Assembly (NCBI GenBank): GCA_965197525.1
Contig: OZ240211.1
Span: forward strand, 2,112,001-2,176,000
From: Nitrosopumilus sp.
Lineage (GTDB): Archaea > Thermoproteota > Nitrososphaeria > Nitrososphaerales > Nitrosopumilaceae
DNA: 64,000 bases
Direction of reading: 5' to 3'
How positions within the stretch are numbered: the first letter of the stretch is position 1; each line of letters opens with the position of its first letter. A program made the translations under genes and the position numbers. Of the stretch, positions 2,727 to 52,783 are shown in pieces. The notes under the pieces were generated by a model that made no database searches, was not told where the DNA came from, and saw only the letters and a program-made list of their open reading frames with translations.

Positions 2727-3276
2727 AACAGTATTTGTGTTACAATATTTATAAATATTTTGAAATATGGTTCTGCTTGTATTGTCCAGAAAGTAGTTCA
2801 CCCCTCACATCAGACTCATAGTCTAGGCAGGCGTGTTCCATGATAGATTTTTTCAGCGGCATAGCATCCCATGTAAAATCTATGAAAGACACAGTCGGCT
2901 TTTCCATTACTAGAAACCGTGGCATGTGGATACATAGGTGGAGACGCTCTATTGTGTGGCGTTATATGGGAAGATTGAGAGGTACGCGTTGGAATTCATT
3001 TACTGTAATTTAGGCGAATGTGATCATGGCGATCCTGACAACAAGAAGAATAATATGGAAAAAACGTATGAATTGACAAAGATGACGTATATAGAATGCC
3101 ATACAAACGTCAATTCTATTTAAAGATAAAAAACCTCAAATTCAGTTGTTAAAAAAGCCTTTTTATAGATTCAAGATATACTGTATGAACTAATTGTGAT
3201 AGATTTACAATGTTAATTTACGTAAATCTTCAGAATTTGACGGATTTGTTTAGCTCTGCCTATTTTTCACGATCTA

Positions 3277-3284
3277 TTTATAAT
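3277..3284 (+). promoter_or_regulatory. Putative TATA box of suf operon (leaderless spacing)
   Basis: TTTATAAT 21-28 nt upstream of sufB ATG. Confidence 0.4.
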
Positions 3285-3304
3285 ATAACGGGGTTATCTT
3301 CAAT

Positions 3305-4705
3305 ATGACAACTGAAAATCTAGATATGGATTATTCACAATATGATTTTAAGGACTCTACAGAGATGTACGTCCACCTTAGCAAGAAAGGCCTGTCTAAG
3401 GAAACTGTAATTAGTATCAGTAAGATGAAAGATGAGCCACAATGGATGCTTGATTTTAGATTGCGCTCCTTTGAAATTTTTATGGAAAAACCAATGCCTA
3501 CTTGGGGTGGCGATCTTAGTGTTATTGACTTTCAAAATATCTACTACTATGCCAAGGCGTCTGAGAAGGTGGAGAAGAGCTGGGATGACGTGCCTGAGAA
3601 TGTTAAAAACACGTTTGACAAACTAGGCATTCCAGAGGCCGAAAAGAAGTTTTTGGCAGGTGTTGGCGCACAGTACGAATCTGAAGTCGTATATCACAGT
3701 TTAAGGGAGGATTTGGCAAAACAAGGTGTTCTCTTTTTGGATACTGATGCTGCACTAAAAGAACATCCTGAGATGTTCAAAAAATACTTTGGTAAGATTA
3801 TTCCTCCAGAGGATAACAAATTTGCCGCATTAAACAGCGCAGTATGGAGTGGCGGCTCATTTATCTATGTACCACCAGGTGTCTCAGTGGACATGCCATT
3901 ACAAGCATACTTTAGAATTAACGCTGAGAACATTGGTCAGTTTGAGAGAACTCTGATAATTGTTGATGAAGGTGCAGAAGTACACTACATAGAGGGATGT
4001 ACTGCTCCTGTATACTCTTCTGAATCCCTGCACTCTGCTGTAGTCGAACTAATAGCTCACAAAGATGCAAAACTGCGATACACCACAATCCAAAACTGGA
4101 GTAACGATGTTTACAATCTTGTGACTAAACGTGCCTATGCATATGAGGGAGCAACAGTAGAATGGATTGACGGAAACATTGGCAGTAAACTAACTATGAA
4201 GTATCCGGGTGTATATCTTTTAGGTGAGCGGGCATACGGTGAGACACTGTCTATTGCATTTGCAGGTAAAGGACAGCATCAAGATACGGGTGCCAAGATG
4301 GTTCATCTTGCACCACATACTACGTCCAAAGTCACATCAAAATCAGTTAGCAGATTAGATGGACGTTCTACGTACCGTGGAATGCTCAAAGTTGCAAAAG
4401 GTGCTACAAATGTAAAGTCTACTGTGCGATGCGACGCACTACTCTTAGACGATACATCAAAAACTGATACATATCCATACATGGAGATTGATCAGGAAGA
4501 CGCAACTATCACCCACGAGGCAACAGTTGGAAAGATTGGTGATGATCAAATCTTTTATCTTATGAGTAGGGGATTCAACGAAGAAGAAGCTCTGTCATTG
4601 ATCGTCAACGGCTTTATGGAGCCATTTACAAAAGAACTCCCAATGGAATATGCAGTAGAACTGAACAGACTCATCAAACTAGAGATGGATGACTCTGTAG
4701 GGTGA
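3305..4705 (+). CDS. sufB: Fe-S cluster assembly protein SufB
   Basis: 'GQFERTLII', 'HYIEGCTAP', 'LHSAVVE', 'HEATVGKI', 'YLMSRG'. Confidence 0.96.
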
Positions 4706-36837: not shown

Positions 36838-37155
36838 ATGTTAATGGGAAAACGTCAAGTCAAAAATGAGAGTGCATTAAAAGAGATTCGGCTACCTGAA
36901 GAAGGCGAACTATTTGGGCGTGTATTAAAGATGCTTGGTGGCGAAAACATTATGATTAAATGCGATGACAATATCACTCGATTAGGACGAATTCGAGGCA
37001 AGCTAAAGCGGAGAGTCTGGATTCGGGACAATGACATCGTCATCATCGCTCCTTGGGATTTCAAAGCCACTGAACGCGGTGACATTATTTGGCGATTTAC
37101 TCTTCCTCAGGTACAATGGTTAAAAGAGAACGATCATATACCAAAAGACTTTTAA
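36838..37155 (+). CDS. eif1a: Translation initiation factor aIF-1A
   Basis: 'LGG...I.C.D...R..RIRGKLKRRVWIR..DIVII.PW'. Confidence 0.95.
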   Translation: MLMGKRQVKNESALKEIRLPEEGELFGRVLKMLGGENIMIKCDDNITRLGRIRGKLKRRVWIRDNDIVIIAPWDFKATERGDIIWRFTLPQVQWLKENDHIPKDF

Positions 37156-37495: not shown

Positions 37496-37622
37496 TGGTC
37501 CCAAGCGAAGGAATTGAACCTTCGACAACCCGGTTTCTGTATGCCTGATATGCTGCTTTACAGTCAGCCATCTAAAGCCGACAACTACAGCCGGAAGCTC
37601 TACCAGGCTGAGCTAGCTTGGG
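37496..37622 (-). tRNA. tRNA-Tyr(GTA) with 50-nt intron (37535-37584) and encoded CCA
   Basis: CCCAAGC/GCTTGGG acceptor, anticodon at 37588-37586, GGTTCAATTCC. Confidence 0.92.
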
Positions 37623-38413: not shown

Positions 38414-38898
38414 TTTCATCATCTGTTGTTACTATTCTTGTAATGATTTAGTTATTCTTTTTACCATTAATCGTATTATTCTGTCTTCATAATCTTTATC
38501 TCATCTGTACTGACTGCAATTCAAAATACGTCTCTTGTGTCGAATCAATCATTACCCGTTTACCGATTGTTGTAATCTTGTATGTTATCTCTCCTCTAGT
38601 TTTAAATCATCATTTCTAATATTGATAATTTTCTACGATAATAATCTCTACACTATAATATTTATACATTTACCTCTAATCATAATTCTGTGGGATCCCG
38701 AAAGTAGTTCGCCCCTCTTCAAAACTTGGAGATGTTTGCATGTATGATGTTCTAGAGTGATGTATAACTGTCTTGTGCTAAATCCTACTGTACAATTCAT
38801 GAATTTTATTCATTTCCACTCCACGCATGGCAACTATTCAAAAAATTATGCATAGTATCCACTACTAAGGACAAAACATCTGTTTTAATGTCATAATG

Positions 38899-39800
38899 CT
38901 ATTCTGCACTGTACTCTTGACCTGTTTGACTATCTGTCACCGTCTTGCCAGCAGGCGGCATCTTTCTCTTAAATGCCTGTACCGGAGTCTCTAGATTGTC
39001 CCAGTCAAGTGACATATGCGGTCTGTTGTAGTTGTACCATTCCATGAACCGTTCCACGGGATCCTTTGCAGATGCGGTGTAAAACGGTCCTCCTACACTA
39101 GAGTTCTCTGTTGTACCACGTCGAGTCTTGCCAGCTGAGGCATCTTCAAAGTGGCGTAGTTTGCGCTGTATCTCTCCGTGCAGACGTTCTAGTTTACCAT
39201 TTGTCTGTGGATGTCGTACACGTGCCAATATGTGTTTGATGTAGTTCCACCAGTCTTGTTCAAATTTGGAGGCACCCTTCTTCTTGGCCTCAGACTCTGT
39301 GGCATAGAACTGGGTACCGCGATCTGTTTTGCAGGCTTGCCGTGATTTTTTATGGCCTCATCAAGTATTAGGGCGTTTTCTGTAGTTGCCTCTGCAAATA
39401 CCCCAAAACCAGTCACAAAATGAAATCCTGGTAACATATGAGCCATCTGCCATCGTCAAGCTGTTTGAAATCAGTATGCCATAGGGAATTGGAGTAAGTT
39501 GTTCCCACCTAACCCACTTGCGCCTCTTGCTCTTGTTTGGACTGGCATCTCATAAATCTTTCAATACTTTGTGTATAAAGTTGTGCGCAATATACATTCC
39601 TACAGATGATCTTATCGCTCCAAGGTTGCATCGAATCTCGTTTGCTATGCTGAGAGAATCACCGAGTGTTCTAGTCGTTGCACTCTTTTTGGGTCTTCCC
39701 ATTGGGGCAGGTTGTCTGCATCTTTGTATCTCTTTGCTTTTGAACCCATGTTCATCTTTTATCTCTCTGTTACTGGCAGTATTCTTGCGTTTCTAAATCA
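38899..39800 (-). pseudogene. Degraded IS481-like (integrase core) transposase
   Basis: 'SNSLWHTDFKQ', 'ARVRHPQTNGKLER', 'WYNYNRPHMSL' in broken frames. Confidence 0.8.
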
Positions 39801-40856: not shown

Positions 40857-41102
40857 CTTTTCTTTGAAATTGTGCCTTGGTCATTATACGTGCAGGTTTG
40901 CATCATTATGATCCCTCTCTTTATTTTCCAACCATGTCCTAATCCAGTGCGTTTTAGTTCTCATACTCTACCATTTTTTGTTTAATTGCCTATCTTGCGC
41001 ATTCTCAAAAAGGATCACACAAGTGATAATATATGTGACTATTATTTCACATTCAATAATGTCCTACCACAACAAGATCACATTACAAGGAATGCGATAC
41101 CG

Positions 41103-42770
41103 ATGACGTTTTTAGATAACTTTCCTCTAAAATATTCTCCTAGATTGATTCAAAAAGACGTCATAAACCAAGTTGAATCTGCAGTAAAATCAGGGTTTAA
41201 AAACATCTTGTTATGCGTTCCTACCGGCGTTGGAAAATCTCATATCGCAGTCGCTGTCGCAAAATCATTAGGAACATCATTTATCGTTACAGCCCAAAAA
41301 ATATTACAAGATCAATACACAAATGATTTTAGTTTCATTTATCCGATGAAGGGTAAATCGAACTTTCCATGTATTGCAAACTATGATACAAACGACATAT
41401 CATACGAACTTGCAAAAAATGATCCCAATCTCTCATGCACTCTTGGAACGTGCTCGTGGGAGGAATCCACAGAATACGGCAGCAAAAAAACTCAATATTG
41501 CAAATTCAAACCAAAGATAGGCTCTTTTCCTGTATCTGATGTGGGAACAGAGGATGAACGGATTGGTGAGCCTGATGACCAGATGTGTTACTATTACAAT
41601 CAAAAGTATCAGGCATTACACGCAACGCATGCCTTGTTTAACTATTCTTCTTACTTTCGGACCAGGCTATTTAGCCAAGGGATTGATGAGCTGCTGCAAC
41701 GAGATTGCTTGATAGCTGATGAAGCACACGAGATCGAAGATCAGATAATCGGATACATTGGATTTGATATCAGGCCGCGATTTTTAGAGGACGTTGGGAT
41801 GAAACTAGACGATTTTGTTATAGATGAGATTGACGGCATGCTGGAGTTATTGGATGGTCTGGGTACAGCATACACCAAAAAAGTCAACCGACTTGTAAGT
41901 GATGATGACAAACGTGCCCAAGCATTCAGAAGACGAAGAGACAAGATTGATACATTATTCTACGAGATCAAAGATAACCCTGAAAACTTTGTGATTCAAG
42001 AGTCAAAAGGATTCTCAGAGAATACAAAGATGGTATCAGTAAAACCAATTGAGATAGGCAAGTATGTAGGTGCATTCTTTGATCGCCCTCATCAGATCTT
42101 TATGAGTGCTACAATAAACCGTCAGATGTTTTGTAGAACCATGAACATTCCTGAAGACGATTGTGCATTTATAGAGGTGACAAAATCACCATTCCCAGTC
42201 AACAACCGCCAGATACAGTTTCACAATATCCGTAAGCTGAATTACCGATCAACTGATCAGGATTATGGTGCAATGTTTGCTAAAATCAAAGAGATTCTAG
42301 AGTTACACCCTGATGAAAAAGGATTGATTCTCACCACTACAAAGAAACAATGTGAGGATATCTCAAACTATCTGGGTGATAGGATTGTAGTTGCGCATGA
42401 GGGCGTTGATGGAAAGAGAGAGAAGATTCTAGAACATCATAGACAGACTAGGAATCCTGACGTACTTGCCTCTCCGTCATTTTGGTATGGTGTTGATCTT
42501 AAAGACGATATATCTCGTTTCCAAATCGTATTGAAGACCCCCTATCCATCTATGGGTGACAAGCGAACCAAAATCAAATCCGATCGCGATCCGTTATGGT
42601 ATCAAAACAAGACTGTGGAAAAACTATTGCAGGGTTTTGGTCGTTCTATCAGAAATGACAAGGATTATGCCGTAACCTATGTGTTAGATGGGTCGGTAAT
42701 ACAGTTACTGGAACGAATGAGAAAATTTGTTCCAAAAGCGTATTATGATTCGTTGGGGTGGGAGCGCTAA
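41103..42770 (+). CDS. DinG/XPD (Rad3-like) SF2 helicase
   Basis: 'PTGVGKS', 'KGKSNFPC', 'ADEAHEIE', 'MSATI', 'WYGVDL', 'QGFGRSIR'. Confidence 0.9.
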   Translation: MTFLDNFPLKYSPRLIQKDVINQVESAVKSGFKNILLCVPTGVGKSHIAVAVAKSLGTSFIVTAQKILQDQYTNDFSFIYPMKGKSNFPCIANYDTNDISYELAKNDPNLSCTLGTCSWEESTEYGSKKTQYCKFKPKIGSFPVSDVGTEDERIGEPDDQMCYYYNQKYQALHATHALFNYSSYFRTRLFSQGIDELLQRDCLIADEAHEIEDQIIGYIGFDIRPRFLEDVGMKLDDFVIDEIDGMLELLDGLGTAYTKKVNRLVSDDDKRAQAFRRRRDKIDTLFYEIKDNPENFVIQESKGFSENTKMVSVKPIEIGKYVGAFFDRPHQIFMSATINRQMFCRTMNIPEDDCAFIEVTKSPFPVNNRQIQFHNIRKLNYRSTDQDYGAMFAKIKEILELHPDEKGLILTTTKKQCEDISNYLGDRIVVAHEGVDGKREKILEHHRQTRNPDVLASPSFWYGVDLKDDISRFQIVLKTPYPSMGDKRTKIKSDRDPLWYQNKTVEKLLQGFGRSIRNDKDYAVTYVLDGSVIQLLERMRKFVPKAYYDSLGWER

Positions 42771-42922
42771 TCTGATCTTGATTAAAAGTCAACAGTGTGC
42801 CTAACTTGAAATGATCAAATATGTAAATATTGGCACGCCATCTTGAGATTGTTTCAAGTCCAGTTTTAATAACTCTGTGACACATTTTAAAGATACTAAC
42901 TATCTTATATGATAAACGCCTA

Positions 42923-43633
42923 ATGCGAATGTCTGATATGGTAGTTAGCTATGAGAATCTTGTACCCGAGCCTAAGAGCCGATTTGTAAACATTCTGTGC
43001 AGTTCATGTGATTCACCTAGTGTCATTTTTACCATGACAAAGAGTGTCATAAATTGTAAATTCTGTGGAAACGTCATAACAGAACCCACTGGTGGTCAGG
43101 CAAAGATTTTTGGGCGACTGCAAGACGTAGTCGATGATCTACCTCACATCCATATCAAAACCATTACACAAGATTCAAAGAAGATACTCAAAAAACTATT
43201 ACTTGATTCTATGATAATACACAAGATGACCAACAACTCATCTGGACAGATATTTGTTAATGATGTCTCCAATTACAACCTTTGTTTGATTGTCTTAGAT
43301 AGAATACTGATTGAAACCATTCACATGGAGAAACAGGAGTATGATGTCTCCCTGACTAAATCTGACATTATTGAAAAGTTAGAGAGAATAGGGCCTGTTG
43401 AAACTATTAAAGTAGATCATGCATCACTAGATATGATTGCAGCACGTGAGTTATGTGACTCTAGAAAGTATGTCAACAGCAATGACGTTGGTCTTTCAGC
43501 CACTGATTGCATGTTACTTCAAATGCATCTGAAAGGGGCAGGTGATCTGGTTACCCATGATAAGACTCTTATCAATGCTGCTGAGAGCGAAGGACGTCCA
43601 TTAACATATGATTGTGTTGTATTCCCAAATTAA
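42923..43633 (+). CDS. eS27-like zinc ribbon fused to PIN-domain nuclease
   Basis: N-term 'LVPEPKSRF...CSSC...CKFCGNVITEPTGGQAKIFG'; PIN acidic motifs 'LLLDS', 'LIET', 'LSATD', 'VTHDKTL'. Confidence 0.78.
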   Translation: MRMSDMVVSYENLVPEPKSRFVNILCSSCDSPSVIFTMTKSVINCKFCGNVITEPTGGQAKIFGRLQDVVDDLPHIHIKTITQDSKKILKKLLLDSMIIHKMTNNSSGQIFVNDVSNYNLCLIVLDRILIETIHMEKQEYDVSLTKSDIIEKLERIGPVETIKVDHASLDMIAARELCDSRKYVNSNDVGLSATDCMLLQMHLKGAGDLVTHDKTLINAAESEGRPLTYDCVVFPN

Positions 43634-43705: not shown

Positions 43706-44065
43706 GGTTCTGTCTAATAAATGGGAATATAGCGTAAAAATTATTTTATATAAAATCACTTTTTTAGTTTTGAAAAGAAGACAAATCATATTAGACACAT
43801 TCACATTGCAGGAAAAAGAGACGGAGATAACAACAACAAGATGGGGCGTCTAAACGGTGAGATAAGAGATTGTGAAAAAGTGTTTAGAGGTCTAAAAAAG
43901 TTTGATACGCCTCTTATTGATGGCATGAAAACATATTACAATTTCACAAAGAAACACGGGTCTTTGAAAGGAAAGACACCAGCAGAAGAAGCTATTGATT
44001 CAGAATGCGAGTTTGCACAAGCAAAATTCAGAATCAAATTTAGGTCTCTATAATCCGACAGAACC
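43706..44065 (+). mobile_element. Internally deleted IS6-like element (360 bp) with transposase C-terminal remnant
   Basis: Ends GGTTCTGTC.../...GACAGAACC; 'NNNKMGRLNGEIRD', 'YYNF.KKHGSLKGKTPAE'. Confidence 0.7.
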
Positions 44066-44080
44066 AAATTTAAAAATATT

Positions 44081-44220
44081 GTAATTGTATAGTTTTTTGA
44101 AGTTCATGACTACAATAAGAAAATTTACGCTCAAATTGCATATCTCATAAAACAGATAGTGATGATTGGTTGATATCCTGTGCGTATATTCTAGTTTACT
44201 TCAAAAAACTACACAGTCAC
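44081..44220. mobile_element. IS66-type MITE, copy 2 (140 bp), with 8-bp TSD AAAATATT
   Basis: TSD at 44073-44080 and 44221-44228. Confidence 0.88.
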
Positions 44221-44299
44221 AAAATATTTATAAACTATGCATATATTTTAGCAATATAATGATCTTTTCTAGCCTCGATTTGCACATTATGTTTCTTAA

Positions 44300-47192
44300 T
44301 TGTACTCAAAGTGCGCAAGTATCATGACTAAACGTAGCATCTCTTTTACTCTTGGCAGCCTGTTCATGCTGTCTGCGGCAATAATCTTTCTTAACTTGGG
44401 GTTGTTTGCATCAGGCACGGATTTGATAGAAGATGGCCAACATACCCACACCTTAAATTTTGTAAATATTGCACATGCCCAATCAGACGAACGTATGGAA
44501 TCTGAAACCTATCCATCACCTGCAAAGCAGCTGAAAGACGGTGTCAACATACATGACATCCAATGTAACGACTCGCGAGAACTTTACATTCGACAATCAC
44601 AAATGCCTGTCTGTCTTTATGATGAGACATTTAATTCTATGCAAGGCAGAGGTATAGAACTTACACCTGCAACTCCATCATCACTGTCATCAATTGATAT
44701 ATTTACGCCCGAAGAGACACAATGGCTGGCAGACAATCCTGTCATACGCGTCTCCTTTGATCCCGGATGGACGCCAATAGAGTACGCTGACGAATCCGGC
44801 AACCTTCAGGGCATTACTTTGGACTACATTGCAGAGTTTGAGGAAATCTCAGGTGCAGACCTGGCACCAGTCCCTGCAGCAGATACGTGGGCTGATGCAT
44901 TAATGGCAATCGAGGAGAGAAACGCAGACATCATGTACATGGTAGCCTCCACGCCTGAAAGGCTGGAATACATGAGCTTTACATCGCCACACTCGCCACA
45001 CTACGGTCAAGACTTCTATGGTGTCCCTGAGTAACACCCCTCTGAATATTGACGATGAGGGACTTAGACTTGCCACAATTAACGGCTACGCAATAGAATC
45101 GTGGCTTGATGAGAATTATCCTGATACAGAGTACGTCTCAGTAAACAATTTTGCCGAGGCCTTTGATCTTCTTGCAGTAGGCGGTGCTGATGCGTTTGCC
45201 AGCACGTGGCAGGTAGCTGTCCACCATGCAAAGATGTCCGGGGTCGGCAATGTGTACAATGCAGGCACTACAGGACACCAGTACGATCTTACCGTGGGGT
45301 ACAGAAACGACATGCCTGTTCTGGGATCCATAATGCAAAAGGTCTTGGATCAGATTCCACAGGAAAAGATTGACAGTTGGTATGATGTGTCCACATCCAC
45401 CGACGACATATACACATCCGAAGAGGTGCAATGGCTGGCAGACAATCCTGTCATACGCGTCTCCTTTGATCCCGGATGGACGCCAATAGAGTACGCTGAC
45501 GAATCCGGCAACCTTCAGGGCATTACTTTGGACTACATTGCAGAGTTTGAGGAAATCTCAGGTGCAGACCTGGCACCAGTCCCTGCAGCAGATACGTGGG
45601 CTGATGCATTAATGGCAATCGAGGAGAGAAACGCAGACATCATGTACATGGTAGCCTCCACGCCTGAAAGGCTGGAATACATGAGCTTTACATCGCCACA
45701 CTATACGGTCAAGACTTCTATGGTGTCCCTGAGTAACACCCCTCTGAATATTGACGATGAGGGACTTAGACTTGCCACAATTAACGGCTACGCAATAGAA
45801 TCGTGGCTTGATGAGAATTATCCTGATACAGAGTACGTCTCAGTAAACAATTTTGCCGAGGCCTTTGATCTTCTTGCAGCAGGCGGTGCTGATGCGTTTG
45901 CCAGCACGTGGCAGGTAGCTGTCCACCATGCAAAGATGTCCGGGGTCGGCAATGTGTACAATGCAGGCACTACAGGACACCAGTACGATCTTACCGTGGG
46001 GTACAGAAACGACATGCCTGTTCTGGGATCCATAATGCAAAAGGTCTTGGATCAGATTCCACAGGAAAAGATTGACAGTTGGTATGATGTGTCCACATCC
46101 ACCGACGACATATACACATCCGAAGAGGTGCAATGGCTGGCAGACAATCCTGTCATACGCGTCTCCTTTGATCCCGGATGGACGCCAATAGAGTACGCTG
46201 ACGAATCCGGCAACCTTCAGGGCATTACTTTGGACTACATTGCAGAGTTTGAGGAAATCTCAGGTGCAGACCTGGCACCAGTCCCTGCAGCAGATACGTG
46301 GGCTGATGCATTAATGGCAATCGAGGAGAGAAACGCAGACATCATGTACATGGTAGCCTCCACGCCTGAAAGGCTGGAATACATGAGCTTTACATCGCCA
46401 CACTATACGGTCAAAACCACCTTGGTGTCGCTAAATGACACCCCTTTGAGCATGGATGAGGAACTTAGACTTGCCACAATTAACGGCTACGCAATAGAAT
46501 CGTGGCTTGATGAGAATTATCCTGATACAGAGTACGTCTCAGTAAACAATTTTGCCGAGGCCTTTGATCTTCTTGCAGCAGGCGGTGCTGATGCGTTTGC
46601 CAGCACGTGGCAGGTAGCTGTCCACCATGCAAAGATGTCCGGGGTCGGCAATGTGTACAATGCAGGCACTACAGGACACCAGTACGATCTTACCGTGGGG
46701 TACAGAAACGACATGCCTGTTCTGGGATCCATAATGCAAAATACACTGGATCATATCCCTCAGGAAAGGATTGATTACTGGTATGATGCAGTAGCACAGA
46801 CAACAGACGACACGGCCGAACTGGAATCAACTGTAATGGGGGTCGTTGACGATACCATCGCACTGTACAACTCCGATCCCTCAAGCGCCTTTGAGAAGAT
46901 TACCTCTATGGAGTTGACCAATCCGCATTATCCATTTGTTCTTGATCCTCTTACCGCCACAGTTGTGGCACACGGCTCATTTCCTGAACGTGTAGGCGAA
47001 ACTTCCATAGCCCTTACCGAGTCAACCACACCGCTTGAGGAGATTCTCTCTAGTCTGCAGAAAGACGGCGATAGCATATGGGCAGAATACCTGTTTACAA
47101 ATCCCTCGACTGGAACAGAACAGCTAAAGCGGTCGCTGTATGTGTTGCATGACGGTTACATAATCGGATCCGGATACTATACATCGTCTTAA
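44300..47192 (+). pseudogene. Secreted/anchored protein with thaumarchaeal SPxKQ domain, three family-3 solute-binding domains and C-terminal Cache domain; frameshifted at ~44993
   Basis: ORFs 44300-45034 and 45018-47192 are one gene split by a net +7-nt change relative to the other repeat units. Confidence 0.85.
44720..46740 (+). repeat. Near-identical 702-bp tandem repeat x3
   Basis: CAATGGCTGG unit starts at 44720, 45429, 46131. Confidence 0.97.
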
Positions 47193-49604: not shown

Positions 49605-49679
49605 GGACTCGTTGCATAGCTTGGATAGTGCGATTGCTTGCGGAGCAATAGGTCGCCGGTTCGAATCCGGTCGGGTCCG
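49605..49679 (+). tRNA. tRNA-Arg(GCG)
   Basis: GGACTCG/CGGGTCC acceptor; ATTGC-TTGCGGA-GCAAT arm; GGTTCGAATCC; followed by a T-tract. Confidence 0.95.
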
Positions 49680-50023
49680 CTTTTTCTTTTTCTTTGTAAC
49701 TGTGATCCTATAGTATTCCAAGAATCTATGTATTGCGTATAACTATCCTGCCATGATGTTATTTGCGTGGTTTACTTTTGTTTCAAACTATCTGCAGTCG
49801 AATTTTAACTTGAACGGGATGTTTGATTCCGGGTAAAAGTCTTGGTCATCCTTTCTTATGTACTAGTACCTACGTTTTACATCTGGCCAATTCAAAGGCG
49901 AGTACTCGTCCATCCCTCATGTATCGTATTACGCTAGTGGTTTTCTTTGTTCAAAATATTTGAGCACTGTTTTTGTAGGACTTTGATATTTAGTCTGTCC
50001 AATACGTCAATAAGTGCATGGGC

Positions 50024-50410
50024 TTACGGATCCAGTCTCTTTTTGACTCTGCTAACGATTCTTTCTGCCCACTTTACAGAGTCTTGGGCATCCTTTGGTT
50101 CCATGAGATCTGGCTGGTACTCTGCTGCATTCTTTTTGTCTATTAATGAGGTAAACTGTCTCTTGATCTCACGGTACTCCTGCGGGGAAAATATCCCCTT
50201 GACAAGTGACAGCGCCTGGGTGTGGTCATCTGAGGCGCGCCTTCCCTTGTACGATGTGGTCAGCGCATCCAGTGCACTGATGGCACTGTGCACGGCACCA
50301 GTCACTGCGCTGTTGTACTTTGCATTCTGTGCTGCAAGCTTGGCCACCTCCAAAAACTCCTCTGATTTTGTGAGATAGTTTGTCGCCTCACTGGGATCAA
50401 CGTCTCTCAT
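50024..50410 (-). CDS. HEPN-domain protein (putative toxin)
   Basis: 'AVHSAISALDAL', R-X4-H 'RASDDH', 'AEYQ'. Confidence 0.85.
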   Translation of the reverse strand: MRDVDPSEATNYLTKSEEFLEVAKLAAQNAKYNSAVTGAVHSAISALDALTTSYKGRRASDDHTQALSLVKGIFSPQEYREIKRQFTSLIDKKNAAEYQPDLMEPKDAQDSVKWAERIVSRVKKRLDP

Positions 50411-51054
50411 TTCAATAGATCCTCCAGATTCCTCCCATGTACCATAGTATGGTTGCCCAGTATGGAACGTACAAGACCGCTTCTCTTTTTTAACCTTAAT
50501 TCGGACTCTGAGAAGACAATTGGGGAGATCCTGCCGTGGAATTTCGCAAATATCTCCTCACCGGCATCTGATGCTGCGGCGATGGCGCCGTCAAAATCAT
50601 CTGATATGACAAGGACGTCAATGTCGCTACCTTCCTTCTCCTGACCTTTTGGAACACTTCCAAAGATTGCAGCCGAGGTGTTTTTTCCCGCACCCAAGTA
50701 TCTTTTGAGAACCAAGATCATCTGGTCAAGTGTCCGCTCTTCGGCCTCAAACATCGGCACTATGATCCTTTTGAGGATATGGCTTTTTTCATTCAGTGAG
50801 ACTTGATGGGATCTGCCTATTGGCTGAATATGCACAACTCCAAGCTTCTCCAACTCCTTGACGGTCTTGGACACTCTGGGATGTGAGACGTGTGCATCGT
50901 GTGCCAGTCTCCTTATGGTAAATATCTTGCCCCTGTGTCTTACTAGGGTGCGAAGCACGCTGATTGAGGCCTTGCTGCCGAGTAATTGTTCCAGATATCT
51001 GTGCAGTTTCATGTATGGTAAATAATATTTCCATATGGTATTAATGTTTTCCAT
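50407..51054 (-). CDS. wHTH + minimal nucleotidyltransferase (MNT)
   Basis: HTH 'TIRRLAHDAHVSHPRVSKTV'; 'FGSVPKGQEKEGSDIDVLV'. Confidence 0.88.
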   Translation of the reverse strand: MENINTIWKYYLPYMKLHRYLEQLLGSKASISVLRTLVRHRGKIFTIRRLAHDAHVSHPRVSKTVKELEKLGVVHIQPIGRSHQVSLNEKSHILKRIIVPMFEAEERTLDQMILVLKRYLGAGKNTSAAIFGSVPKGQEKEGSDIDVLVISDDFDGAIAAASDAGEEIFAKFHGRISPIVFSESELRLKKRSGLVRSILGNHTMVHGRNLEDLLK

Positions 51055-51111
51055 ATTGATGTTTTAAACTATCTCAAAAACAAGACAATCAACTAAGATA
51101 TGGAAGTGTCT

Positions 51112-51447
51112 TATTATAGGCATGTTCCAGATAATGAACAATCTGTGATATTATTATGGTTTTACTGATATTTGTTGGAGTGGATCCTCTTTTGCAGCCC
51201 ATAAAATGAGAACGTTTTTTGCATGATCATCCATACAGTCTCCCTCATTTATTCTTCATCTCCCACTGCGATGCAAATTCTACAGGCGTCATGTATCCTA
51301 TGGCAGAGTGAATTCTTTCTTGGTTGCAGTCTGCAAAAGCGTCTACCAGGATCTTTTCGGCCTCCTGATAACTAGCAAATTCATGCGCAGCCACAAGTAT
51401 TCTTTTTTGAGAGTCTTGTGGAACGATTCCACATGACCGTTCTGTTC
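51112..51447 (-). repeat. Duplicated IS3 right end plus flank
   Basis: Near-identical to 51820-52141 with a 13-bp insertion in the IR and a small indel. Confidence 0.92.
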
Positions 51448-51940
51448 CACTATACATGCAGCAGGGACATCGTACTATGCAAGATATTTCTGCGTCTCAT
51501 ACCGGTCCGACCCTTCTGCCATACCGCGCGTAGTTAGTTGGGATTAACTTGCAGTGAAGAAAAAATTTACATACGTTCTTAAGCGTTGTTCCTGTGAGTG
51601 TTTGTTGTGTGCGTCCCTTCATTTGTGGATATCTGAAGGGATTTCACACTGTATGTTATTAAGAGACGGTATCAATTACGTTTGAATTACAGCTAAACTG
51701 ATCGTAAGGCACGCACATGCAGGATTGATCAGATCGTGTTGATTACCCATTCACGCATCTGTTGTAGGAACTTTTTCTAGAAAGTGTCCGGATCTTTAAT
51801 CAGAATAGTATGCATGTGGTATTATAGGCATGTTCCAGATAATGAACAATCTGTGATATTATTATGGTTTTACTGATATTTGTTGGAGTGGACCCCATAA
51901 AATGAGAACGTTTTTTGCATGATCATCCATACAGTCTCCC

Positions 51941-52783
51941 TCATTTATTCTTCATCTCCCACTGCGATGCAAATTCTACAGGCGTCATGTATCCTATGGC
52001 AGAGTGAATTCTTTCTTGGTTGCAGTCTGCAAAAGCGTCTACCAGGATCTTTTCGGCCTCCTGATAACTAGCAAATTCATGCGGCCACAAGTATTCTTTT
52101 TTGAGAGTCTTGTGGAACGATTCCACATGACCGTTCTGTTCGGGTGTGTGCTTCCAGATGAACTCGTGTTTTATGCCAAATACCGATACTTCTTTTCTAA
52201 AATCATTACTGGTGTACTGCGTGCCGTTGTCGGTTCTAAGTCTAAGTCTGGAGCAGTCAGGATTCTCTACATACACGGCATTTGTTATGGAGTCAATTGC
52301 CACTTGTTTTGTGGCATCTACGTCAAACGCATACGATATCCATCTACGCGTAAAGCAGTCCACCACGTTAAAGCAATAGCACCATCCGTCCATCCCACAC
52401 CAGACGTACGTCATGTCCGTCTCCCATAGCCGGTTCGGTGCATCCGGTTCGAAGAGCTTGCGATTGGTGTGAATGATGTCGTTTTTTGTCTTTTGAGGCT
52501 CAATCCCGCCCAGTTTTCGGAATATTCTTTGTATCTTCTTGCGATTTGTGGCAGTGTGTGTCTCGCAGCACACTTGGGCTGCCATGCGGCGTGTGCCATA
52601 GGTGGGTCTTCTGCTGCCTATCCTCTGCACTGCCTGTACGGCTGCCGGATCCAATCTCATCTCCCTTGCCTTGGGTTTGTGATACCACATACGTCTTGAC
52701 ACTCCGGCATAGCGTAGTGATTTACGCAGGCTCATCTTTTCATACAGTTCTCTGACGGCACTCAATCTCTGGCTTCCTCCCAA
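51941..52783 (-). CDS. IS3 OrfB DDE transposase
   Basis: 'PTYGTRRM', 'WETDMTY', 'TDNGTQY', 'PEQNGHVESFH', 'RIHSAIGYMTP'. Confidence 0.92.
   Translation of the reverse strand: MGGSQRLSAVRELYEKMSLRKSLRYAGVSRRMWYHKPKAREMRLDPAAVQAVQRIGSRRPTYGTRRMAAQVCCETHTATNRKKIQRIFRKLGGIEPQKTKNDIIHTNRKLFEPDAPNRLWETDMTYVWCGMDGWCYCFNVVDCFTRRWISYAFDVDATKQVAIDSITNAVYVENPDCSRLRLRTDNGTQYTSNDFRKEVSVFGIKHEFIWKHTPEQNGHVESFHKTLKKEYLWPHEFASYQEAEKILVDAFADCNQERIHSAIGYMTPVEFASQWEMKNK

Follow-up and report, generated by a model that had tools for sequence, protein, structure and literature searches.

What does a nuclease gain from a copy of a ribosomal protein at its N-terminus? The question is raised by a gene in a 64,000-nt stretch of the genome of Nitrosopumilus sp. 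(assembly GCA_965197525.1, contig OZ240211.1, positions 2,112,001 to 2,176,000 of the forward strand), hereafter called the window, to which all coordinates refer unless stated otherwise. The genome is complete, a single contig of 2.21 Mb, and belongs to a lineage of marine ammonia-oxidising archaea that is among the most abundant archaeal groups of the ocean. At positions 42923-43633 on the + strand, an uninterrupted open reading frame (ORF) of 236 aa plus stop encodes an eS27-like ribbon fused to a PIN domain, a frame supported by the ORF itself, by the starts of homologs and by the ratio of nonsynonymous to synonymous substitutions (dN/dS). The closest relatives of the protein start at the methionine equivalent to M6 (42938), and translation may begin either there or at 42923. 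The 150-bp gap 5' of the gene holds only a promoter-like element, the TATA-like TTTTAAAG at 42885-42892 (+), about 30-35 nt 5' of the first ATG, a candidate archaeal promoter by its resemblance to the consensus.

A sequence-only reading had recognised an eS27 paralog in the N-terminal part of the protein, and the analysis bears this out. The module is a C4 zinc ribbon at 42944-43132 (aa 8-70, + strand like all features of the gene), delimited by Pfam, Foldseek, VIA-align and a gap-free alignment. Its four conserved cysteines are the predicted zinc ligands: C26 (42998-43000), C29 (43007-43009), C45 (43055-43057) and C48 (43064-43066). The Pfam family Ribosomal_S27e (PF01667) matches aa 17-64 with an E-value of 1.7e-13 (50.5 bits against a cut-off of 24.5), about 11 orders of magnitude ahead of every other ribbon family, the runner-up being A2L_zn_ribbon at E 0.036. 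When the AlphaFold2 model was searched with Foldseek, the best 25 matches of the module were all eS27 chains, archaeal and eukaryotic (7zhg_W at E 8e-7, 6skf, 9e71, 1qxf and others); VIA-align, run as a structure search over 48,161 chains, superimposed it on 9o17_AX with a Z score of 7.4 and a root-mean-square deviation of 1.8 Å over 55 residues.

Alignment to canonical eS27 is colinear over all 65 aa of the canonical protein, with zero gaps. The hallmarks P-x-P-x-S-x-F, the four cysteines, CGN and the PTGG/P-TG motif are kept, and the net charge is close to that of canonical eS27. A private conserved signature, FTMxKS..NC.FCGN, replaces the canonical SHAST...C.SCGN, and the conserved N-terminal MKKxH of the canonical protein is absent. 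As had been anticipated, a separate canonical rps27e of 65 aa lies elsewhere in the genome, directly downstream of rpl44e, so the eS27 part of the fusion gene represents a paralog. With the host's own eS27 the module shares 35% identity, and with canonical eS27 across the phylum 30-46%. Since it is no closer to the eS27 of its own genus and family (34-46%) than to that of families further away in the phylum (up to 45%), the alignments indicate that it is an old or fast-evolving paralog. Identities to all canonical eS27 of the phylum are about equal, and 55-65 aa are too few for a tree to single out a donor lineage.

The C-terminal domain extends from 43187 to 43630 (aa 89-236) and is a PIN domain of the VapC/PF01850 type, as assigned from VIA-align, Foldseek, conserved columns and the PF01850 matches of relatives. 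It is modelled with a predicted local distance difference test score (pLDDT) of 80-90 over aa 89-232. PIN proteins make up the best 25 or so VIA-align matches, with Z scores between 10.8 and 8 for VapC structures; the highest are VapC 5x3t_B (10.8), VapC20 5wz4_A (10.7), 4xgq (10.4), PAE0151 (2fe1; 9.9) and AF1683 (9.6). Utp24 (5yz4) and Nob1 (2lcq) are matched at Z 7.8 and 7.5, respectively. Foldseek returned 2fe1, 1w8i and 1v8p, and an Atlas feature search places the protein among the PF01850 clusters of Nitrososphaerota. The fusion protein has no Pfam PIN match of its own; PF01850 is matched in 18 of 28 family members, with a best E-value of 4.3e-07. Profile matches to solved PIN structures reach E 0.24-0.45 at best, and the family profile aligns to a standalone Nitrosopumilus PF01850 PIN with an hhalign probability of 87% (E 3.7e-06).

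The four acidic positions to which the sequence-only reading had pointed are D95 in LLLD (43205-43207), E131 in LIET (43313-43315), D195 in LSATD (43505-43507) and D213 in THD (43559-43561). Across 28 diverse members of the PIN family D95, E131, S192 and D195 are invariant, and D126, T211 and D213 nearly so. In profile alignments D95 and the S-x-x-D and T-x-D motifs line up with the equivalent PIN motifs in 1o4w and 7by2. Because the full acidic metal-binding set is present (D95, E131, D195 and D213), the domain is most likely an active Mg2+/Mn2+-dependent endoribonuclease.

Between the two modules lies a linker at 43133-43186 (aa 71-88) that is predicted to be disordered, with pLDDT below 50 at aa 73-83, and that differs in sequence and length among relatives. 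The full-length model has a moderate predicted template modelling score (pTM) of 0.58, without a confident fixed arrangement of the domains. Prediction of a complex between the eS27 module and the PIN domain gave a score of 0.00, which, having been obtained without controls, counts neither for nor against binding.

The joint between the modules is genuine. Two contigs from two other studies (X4 and X5, 4.9 and 2.8 kb) each cover the entire gene at about 94% identity, and two more (X1 and X3) also bridge the junction, so the assembly chimera that had been considered at the outset is not what is seen here. A search for the architecture found the same eS27+PIN order in at least 12 distinct relatives, at 43-94% identity, from independent genomes and metagenomes. 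Three relatives are annotated as starting in mid-ribbon; in at least one of these (P0011) a complete ribbon is encoded in frame upstream, and the short form is thus a matter of start-codon call. By the Nei-Gojobori method, in pairs with dS of 0.7-1.2, dN/dS ranges from 0.03 to 0.11 for the eS27 and PIN parts alike. Purifying selection therefore acts on both modules, and the gene is kept intact.

The family to which the gene belongs is small and was found only in Nitrosopumilaceae. With the PIN half as query, only 25 proteins were found among 1.84 billion representative proteins, and all named relatives belong to Nitrosopumilus or Nitrosopumilaceae. Three types of appendage occur on the PIN core: the eS27 ribbon, a Lys/Arg-rich N-terminal tail and a C-terminal CxxC...CxxC ribbon. 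In a maximum-likelihood tree of the PIN domain, midpoint rooted for drawing only, the forms with the Lys/Arg-rich tail are basal and this tail is apparently the ancestral form of the family. The C-terminal-ribbon forms make up one clade (support 100/99), as do the main eS27 forms (90/80), the latter sister to a Lys/Arg-tail clade. A divergent eS27 form, P0021, branches apart from the main eS27 clade; its ribbon has the derived residues F36, N44 and F47 in common with that clade, which favours a single acquisition of the eS27 ribbon with later replacement of the module over the alternative of two gains. The presence of interchangeable basic or zinc-binding modules on one catalytic core suggests that the appendage supplies nucleic-acid binding or targeting.

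Several genomes also carry standalone relatives of the family, 140-148 aa long (E 1e-7 to 1e-9), which may represent its ancestral stock. In one Nitrosopumilus genome (locus L014) a standalone PF01850 PIN gene of 139 aa lies about 300 bp downstream of the eS27-PIN gene, at locus positions 3092-3511 (+), corresponding to G287:C1:2188044-2188409.

Within the Nitrosopumilaceae, the PIN family is matched in 28 of 401 genomes (22 of the 246 of high quality), strongly in 11. A second eS27 (PF01667) match occurs in only 7 of 301 genomes. The confirmed fusion carriers that were sampled (G000, G177, G287 and G014) have two eS27 matches each and thus retain the canonical gene. Two PF01667 matches each are also found in G055 and G074 (genus g5, genomes of about 0.8 Mb) and in G046 (g21); no PIN-family match was found in either genus, and these extra copies may be another kind of eS27 duplicate or contamination. 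Long open frames around the canonical eS27 gene in genus g13 and in G052 were dismissed as chance frames in high-GC genomes, not fusions.

Members of the close clade, which share at least 75% identity, have the genes for the DinG-like helicase, the fusion protein and a MIP channel in the same order. In the window the helicase, of XPD/DinG type (Helicase_C_2, ResIII), occupies 40986-42770 (+), 150 bp upstream of the fusion gene; it matches generic DinG models only, the best PADLOC model being type IV-A DinG at E 1e-59. A functional tie between helicase and fusion gene was not adopted: the pairing occurs only in the close clade, and in one relative (L056) the helicase is split into ORFs of 333 and 222 aa next to an intact PIN fusion gene. 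More distant members of the family have unrelated neighbours: insertion sequence (IS) transposases and the standalone PIN gene just mentioned at L014; a HicAB-like pair with a DDE transposase at L007/L017; two Holliday-resolvase-like endonucleases at L018; SRA-McrA and CARF genes plus a series of small ORFs at L008/L019; and, at L051, ordinary chromosomal genes. No small partner or antitoxin-like neighbour of VapB kind (AbrB, RHH, PhD or MerR type) recurs across nine loci, in keeping with the earlier remark that a VapB partner was not evident. Movement of the gene as a cassette, an idea drawn from the unlike flanks of contigs X4 and X5, where homology stops near 42855 and 43650, was rejected: the sequence before 42856 still resembles the window, the likeness threshold was 85%, and synteny is kept in close relatives.

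To explain these features we propose, with a confidence that we would put at about even, that the protein is an accessory PIN ribonuclease (RNase) equipped with an eS27-derived RNA-targeting module and that its target is small-subunit rRNA or ribosome-associated RNA. The PIN domain would cut RNA as a Mg2+/Mn2+-dependent endoribonuclease, and the eS27-like ribbon would bind RNA and aim the nuclease through the flexible linker of about 18 residues. Since the module retains eS27-specific features well beyond those of a generic ribbon, the most probable target would be rRNA of the small subunit, or RNA associated with the ribosome, near the eS27 region of the platform. The physiological role would be one in conflict or stress, as a solo toxin-like or translation shut-off effector. 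Such a role fits better than housekeeping because the family is patchily spread, has no conserved partner and occurs in neighbourhoods rich in IS, toxin-antitoxin and defence genes. RNase activity, a targeting role for the module, a ribosomal target and a function in conflict or stress are thus what we infer.

It is possible, if on balance doubtful, that the module goes so far as to take up the eS27 position on the platform, or to compete for it, thereby tethering the PIN domain near h22/h26, the mRNA exit and the 16S 3' end. A PIN domain docked in this manner would stop translation by cleavage of rRNA or mRNA during stress or infection. In eukaryotic 43S/48S complexes the zinc knuckle of eS27 faces the solvent on the platform, next to h22/h26 and uS15 and at the place bound by eIF3c/d (PMC7780240, PMC7166083); extrapolating from eukaryotes, a C-terminal appendage projecting from the eS27 site would be sterically conceivable.

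A number of observations weigh against a ribosome-directed RNase acting in conflict or stress. The canonical eS27 site is presumably already filled in mature subunits. The module scores 60.6 bits with the NCBIfam S27e equivalog (NF001629), under the cut-off of 70. Of the basic positions that are invariant in canonical eS27 it lacks several (column 18 and the N-terminal KK among them), and two new ones have appeared; with the basic positions re-patterned in this way, its RNA-contact surface is probably altered relative to canonical eS27. The exchange of appendages within the family argues for a general role in RNA binding or targeting, not for the eS27 site in particular. A solo PIN toxin without antitoxin requires some other mechanism of control, and none was identified. 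None of the PADLOC-DB defence models matches the fusion protein, and no relatives were found among viral contigs, which also speaks against a viral origin. The stable synteny with the DinG-like helicase in the close clade means that the gene is not obviously mobile in the short term. Finally, ribosome binding and RNase activity are both predictions.

Some of these points bear equally on a different account, to which we accord a minority but serious chance: that the module is a generic RNA-binding ribbon whose eS27 ancestry is incidental, lending the nuclease non-specific affinity or affinity for other RNA (tRNA, mRNA or viral RNA) with no action on the ribosome. Its interchangeability with Lys/Arg-rich tails and C-terminal zinc ribbons on the same PIN family, the identity of only about 35% to canonical eS27 with re-patterned basic positions and the sub-cut-off equivalog score would all be expected on this account, and many characterised VapC-type PINs cleave tRNA or mRNA. 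However, a generic ribbon would not explain why the eS27-specific hallmarks (P-x-P-x-S-x-F, CGN and PTG) persist in a gap-free alignment over 65 aa, why the eS27 match stands 11 orders of magnitude above those to other ribbon families, or why the module is under strong purifying selection. We consider it unlikely that the protein is instead a factor for biogenesis or quality control, similar to Nob1 or Utp24, that binds immature or damaged 30S subunits without eS27 and processes or degrades their rRNA. Both Nob1 and Utp24 are among the structural matches, an eS27-like module could in principle recognise a vacant eS27 site, and in some distant members of the family the zinc ribbon comes after the PIN domain, as in Nob1. 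Yet both are outscored by VapC structures, the family profile fails to align to the host's Nob1 (hhalign probability 0.1%), the same genome carries a canonical Nob1, and the genes occur in variable islands and in only 28 of 401 genomes, not in translation operons. The role in rRNA processing, of Nob1-like housekeeping type, that the sequence-only reading had listed among its options is therefore unlikely.

The lack of an antitoxin-like neighbour would find an explanation of its own if the protein were a fused toxin-antitoxin, with the N-terminal module acting as an inhibitor in cis that covers the PIN active site until proteolysis or a signal releases it. In VapBC complexes basic residues of the antitoxin can enter the acidic PIN active site, and the Lys/Arg-rich tails of sister forms would suit such an arrangement. 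The disordered linker and the pTM of 0.58, with no confident fixed arrangement of domains, do not favour it, however, nor do the family forms whose zinc ribbon is C-terminal, which do not suit a scheme with an N-terminal antitoxin; to our knowledge the eS27 fold has no antitoxin role. We regard a fused toxin-antitoxin as distinctly improbable. Scarcely credible, lastly, is an artefact, whether through chimeric assembly, wrong joining of ORFs or decay into a pseudogene, given single contigs (X4 and X5) that hold the whole gene, others (X1 and X3) that bridge the junction, relatives that share the architecture and low dN/dS in both halves; the sole weak point is the start codon, at 42923 or 42938. 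An accessory RNase aimed by its eS27-derived module thus remains the reading that we prefer.

The fusion gene sits in a variable segment of the window bracketed by two tRNA genes. One is a 124-nt Rfam match at 37499-37622 (-) without an ARAGORN call, probably an intron-containing archaeal tRNA; the other is a tRNA-Arg at 49605-49680. Within the segment, an rve_3 integrase-core remnant (38899-39228, -) lies between two identical copies of a 27-nt direct repeat (at 38662 and 39900). A 70-aa ORF at 43841-44053, without a Pfam match, resembles the C-terminal end of a transposase, and an inverted repeat at 44071-44230 looks like a miniature inverted-repeat transposable element, with 33-nt arms, 85% complementary, 94 nt apart. 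Two overlapping ORFs of 244 and 724 aa at 44300-47192 (+) contain SBP_bac_3 solute-binding repeats and are built of three tandem units of about 700 bp with 85-99% identity (44696-46697). The relative L055 has a single gene of 1315 aa at this position; the copy in the window may be frameshifted or may differ in repeat number. Just downstream of the tRNA-Arg, a HEPN gene (50024-50410, -) and a gene for an HTH-MNT nucleotidyltransferase (50407-51054, -) overlap by 4 nt and resemble a toxin-antitoxin pair. A full integrase/transposase of the rve family, with HTH_21 and rve domain matches, follows at 51941-52783 (-); its 5' region is tandemly duplicated about 700 bp away (51107-51447 and 51815-52141, 96-99% identical). 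On the other side, an aIF1A gene (eIF-1a domain, E 2e-20) at 36838-37155 (+) stands at the conserved edge of a block syntenic with L013 and L055.

Comparison with known proteins sets the fusion apart on each side. It shares with ribosomal eS27 (PF01667) the C4 zinc-ribbon fold, the hallmark motifs and the gap-free 65-aa alignment; it differs in being only about 35% identical, in its own signature, in the missing MKKxH and sub-equivalog score, in its location outside the rpl44e-rps27e operon and in a C-terminal extension of 166 aa. With the VapC PIN toxins (PF01850; M. tuberculosis VapC20 and VapC26, archaeal PAE0151 and AF1683) it has the fold and the four acidic positions in common; in contrast to these, it has no adjacent VapB, bears an N-terminal module with a putative targeting role and is too divergent in sequence for a Pfam PIN match. 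Archaeal Nob1, the endonuclease of the 16S 3' end (PIN_6 plus C-terminal Zn_ribbon_NOB1), likewise has both a PIN domain and a zinc ribbon, and offers a possible link to the platform. The order of domains is reversed in the fusion, as the sequence-only reading had noted and as the host's own intact Nob1 confirms (173 aa, PIN then zinc ribbon); moreover the ribbon is of another family, and the distribution is patchy rather than near-universal. Extra copies of ribosomal proteins beside the canonical gene are known from virus-encoded homologs of bS21 or bL12 and from the eukaryotic eS27/eS27L pair. Those proteins stand alone, whereas the paralog described here is joined covalently to a nuclease. 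No description of an S27e/eS27 plus PIN architecture was found in the literature, a classification of the PIN superfamily (PMC5499597) lists no S27 fusion, and public annotation records no names for the relatives. As far as the literature searched extends, a PIN nuclease that owes its putative targeting module to a ribosomal protein has not been described before.

PIN nucleases abound, and what directs them to their substrates is mostly unknown. In this case a ribosomal protein can be recognised as the source of the putative aiming module, which selection keeps alongside the canonical copy. Should the module dock on the ribosome, the gene would provide a natural case of a ribosomal-protein paralog delivering an enzyme to the ribosome, and a new archaeal route to translation shut-off in which the paralog has been co-opted as the homing device of an effector. 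Even without docking, the family, which is uncharacterised and lacks a Pfam entry of its own, combines one PIN core with swappable appendages, and it could serve for studies of how the specificity of a nuclease is set by accessory RNA-binding modules.

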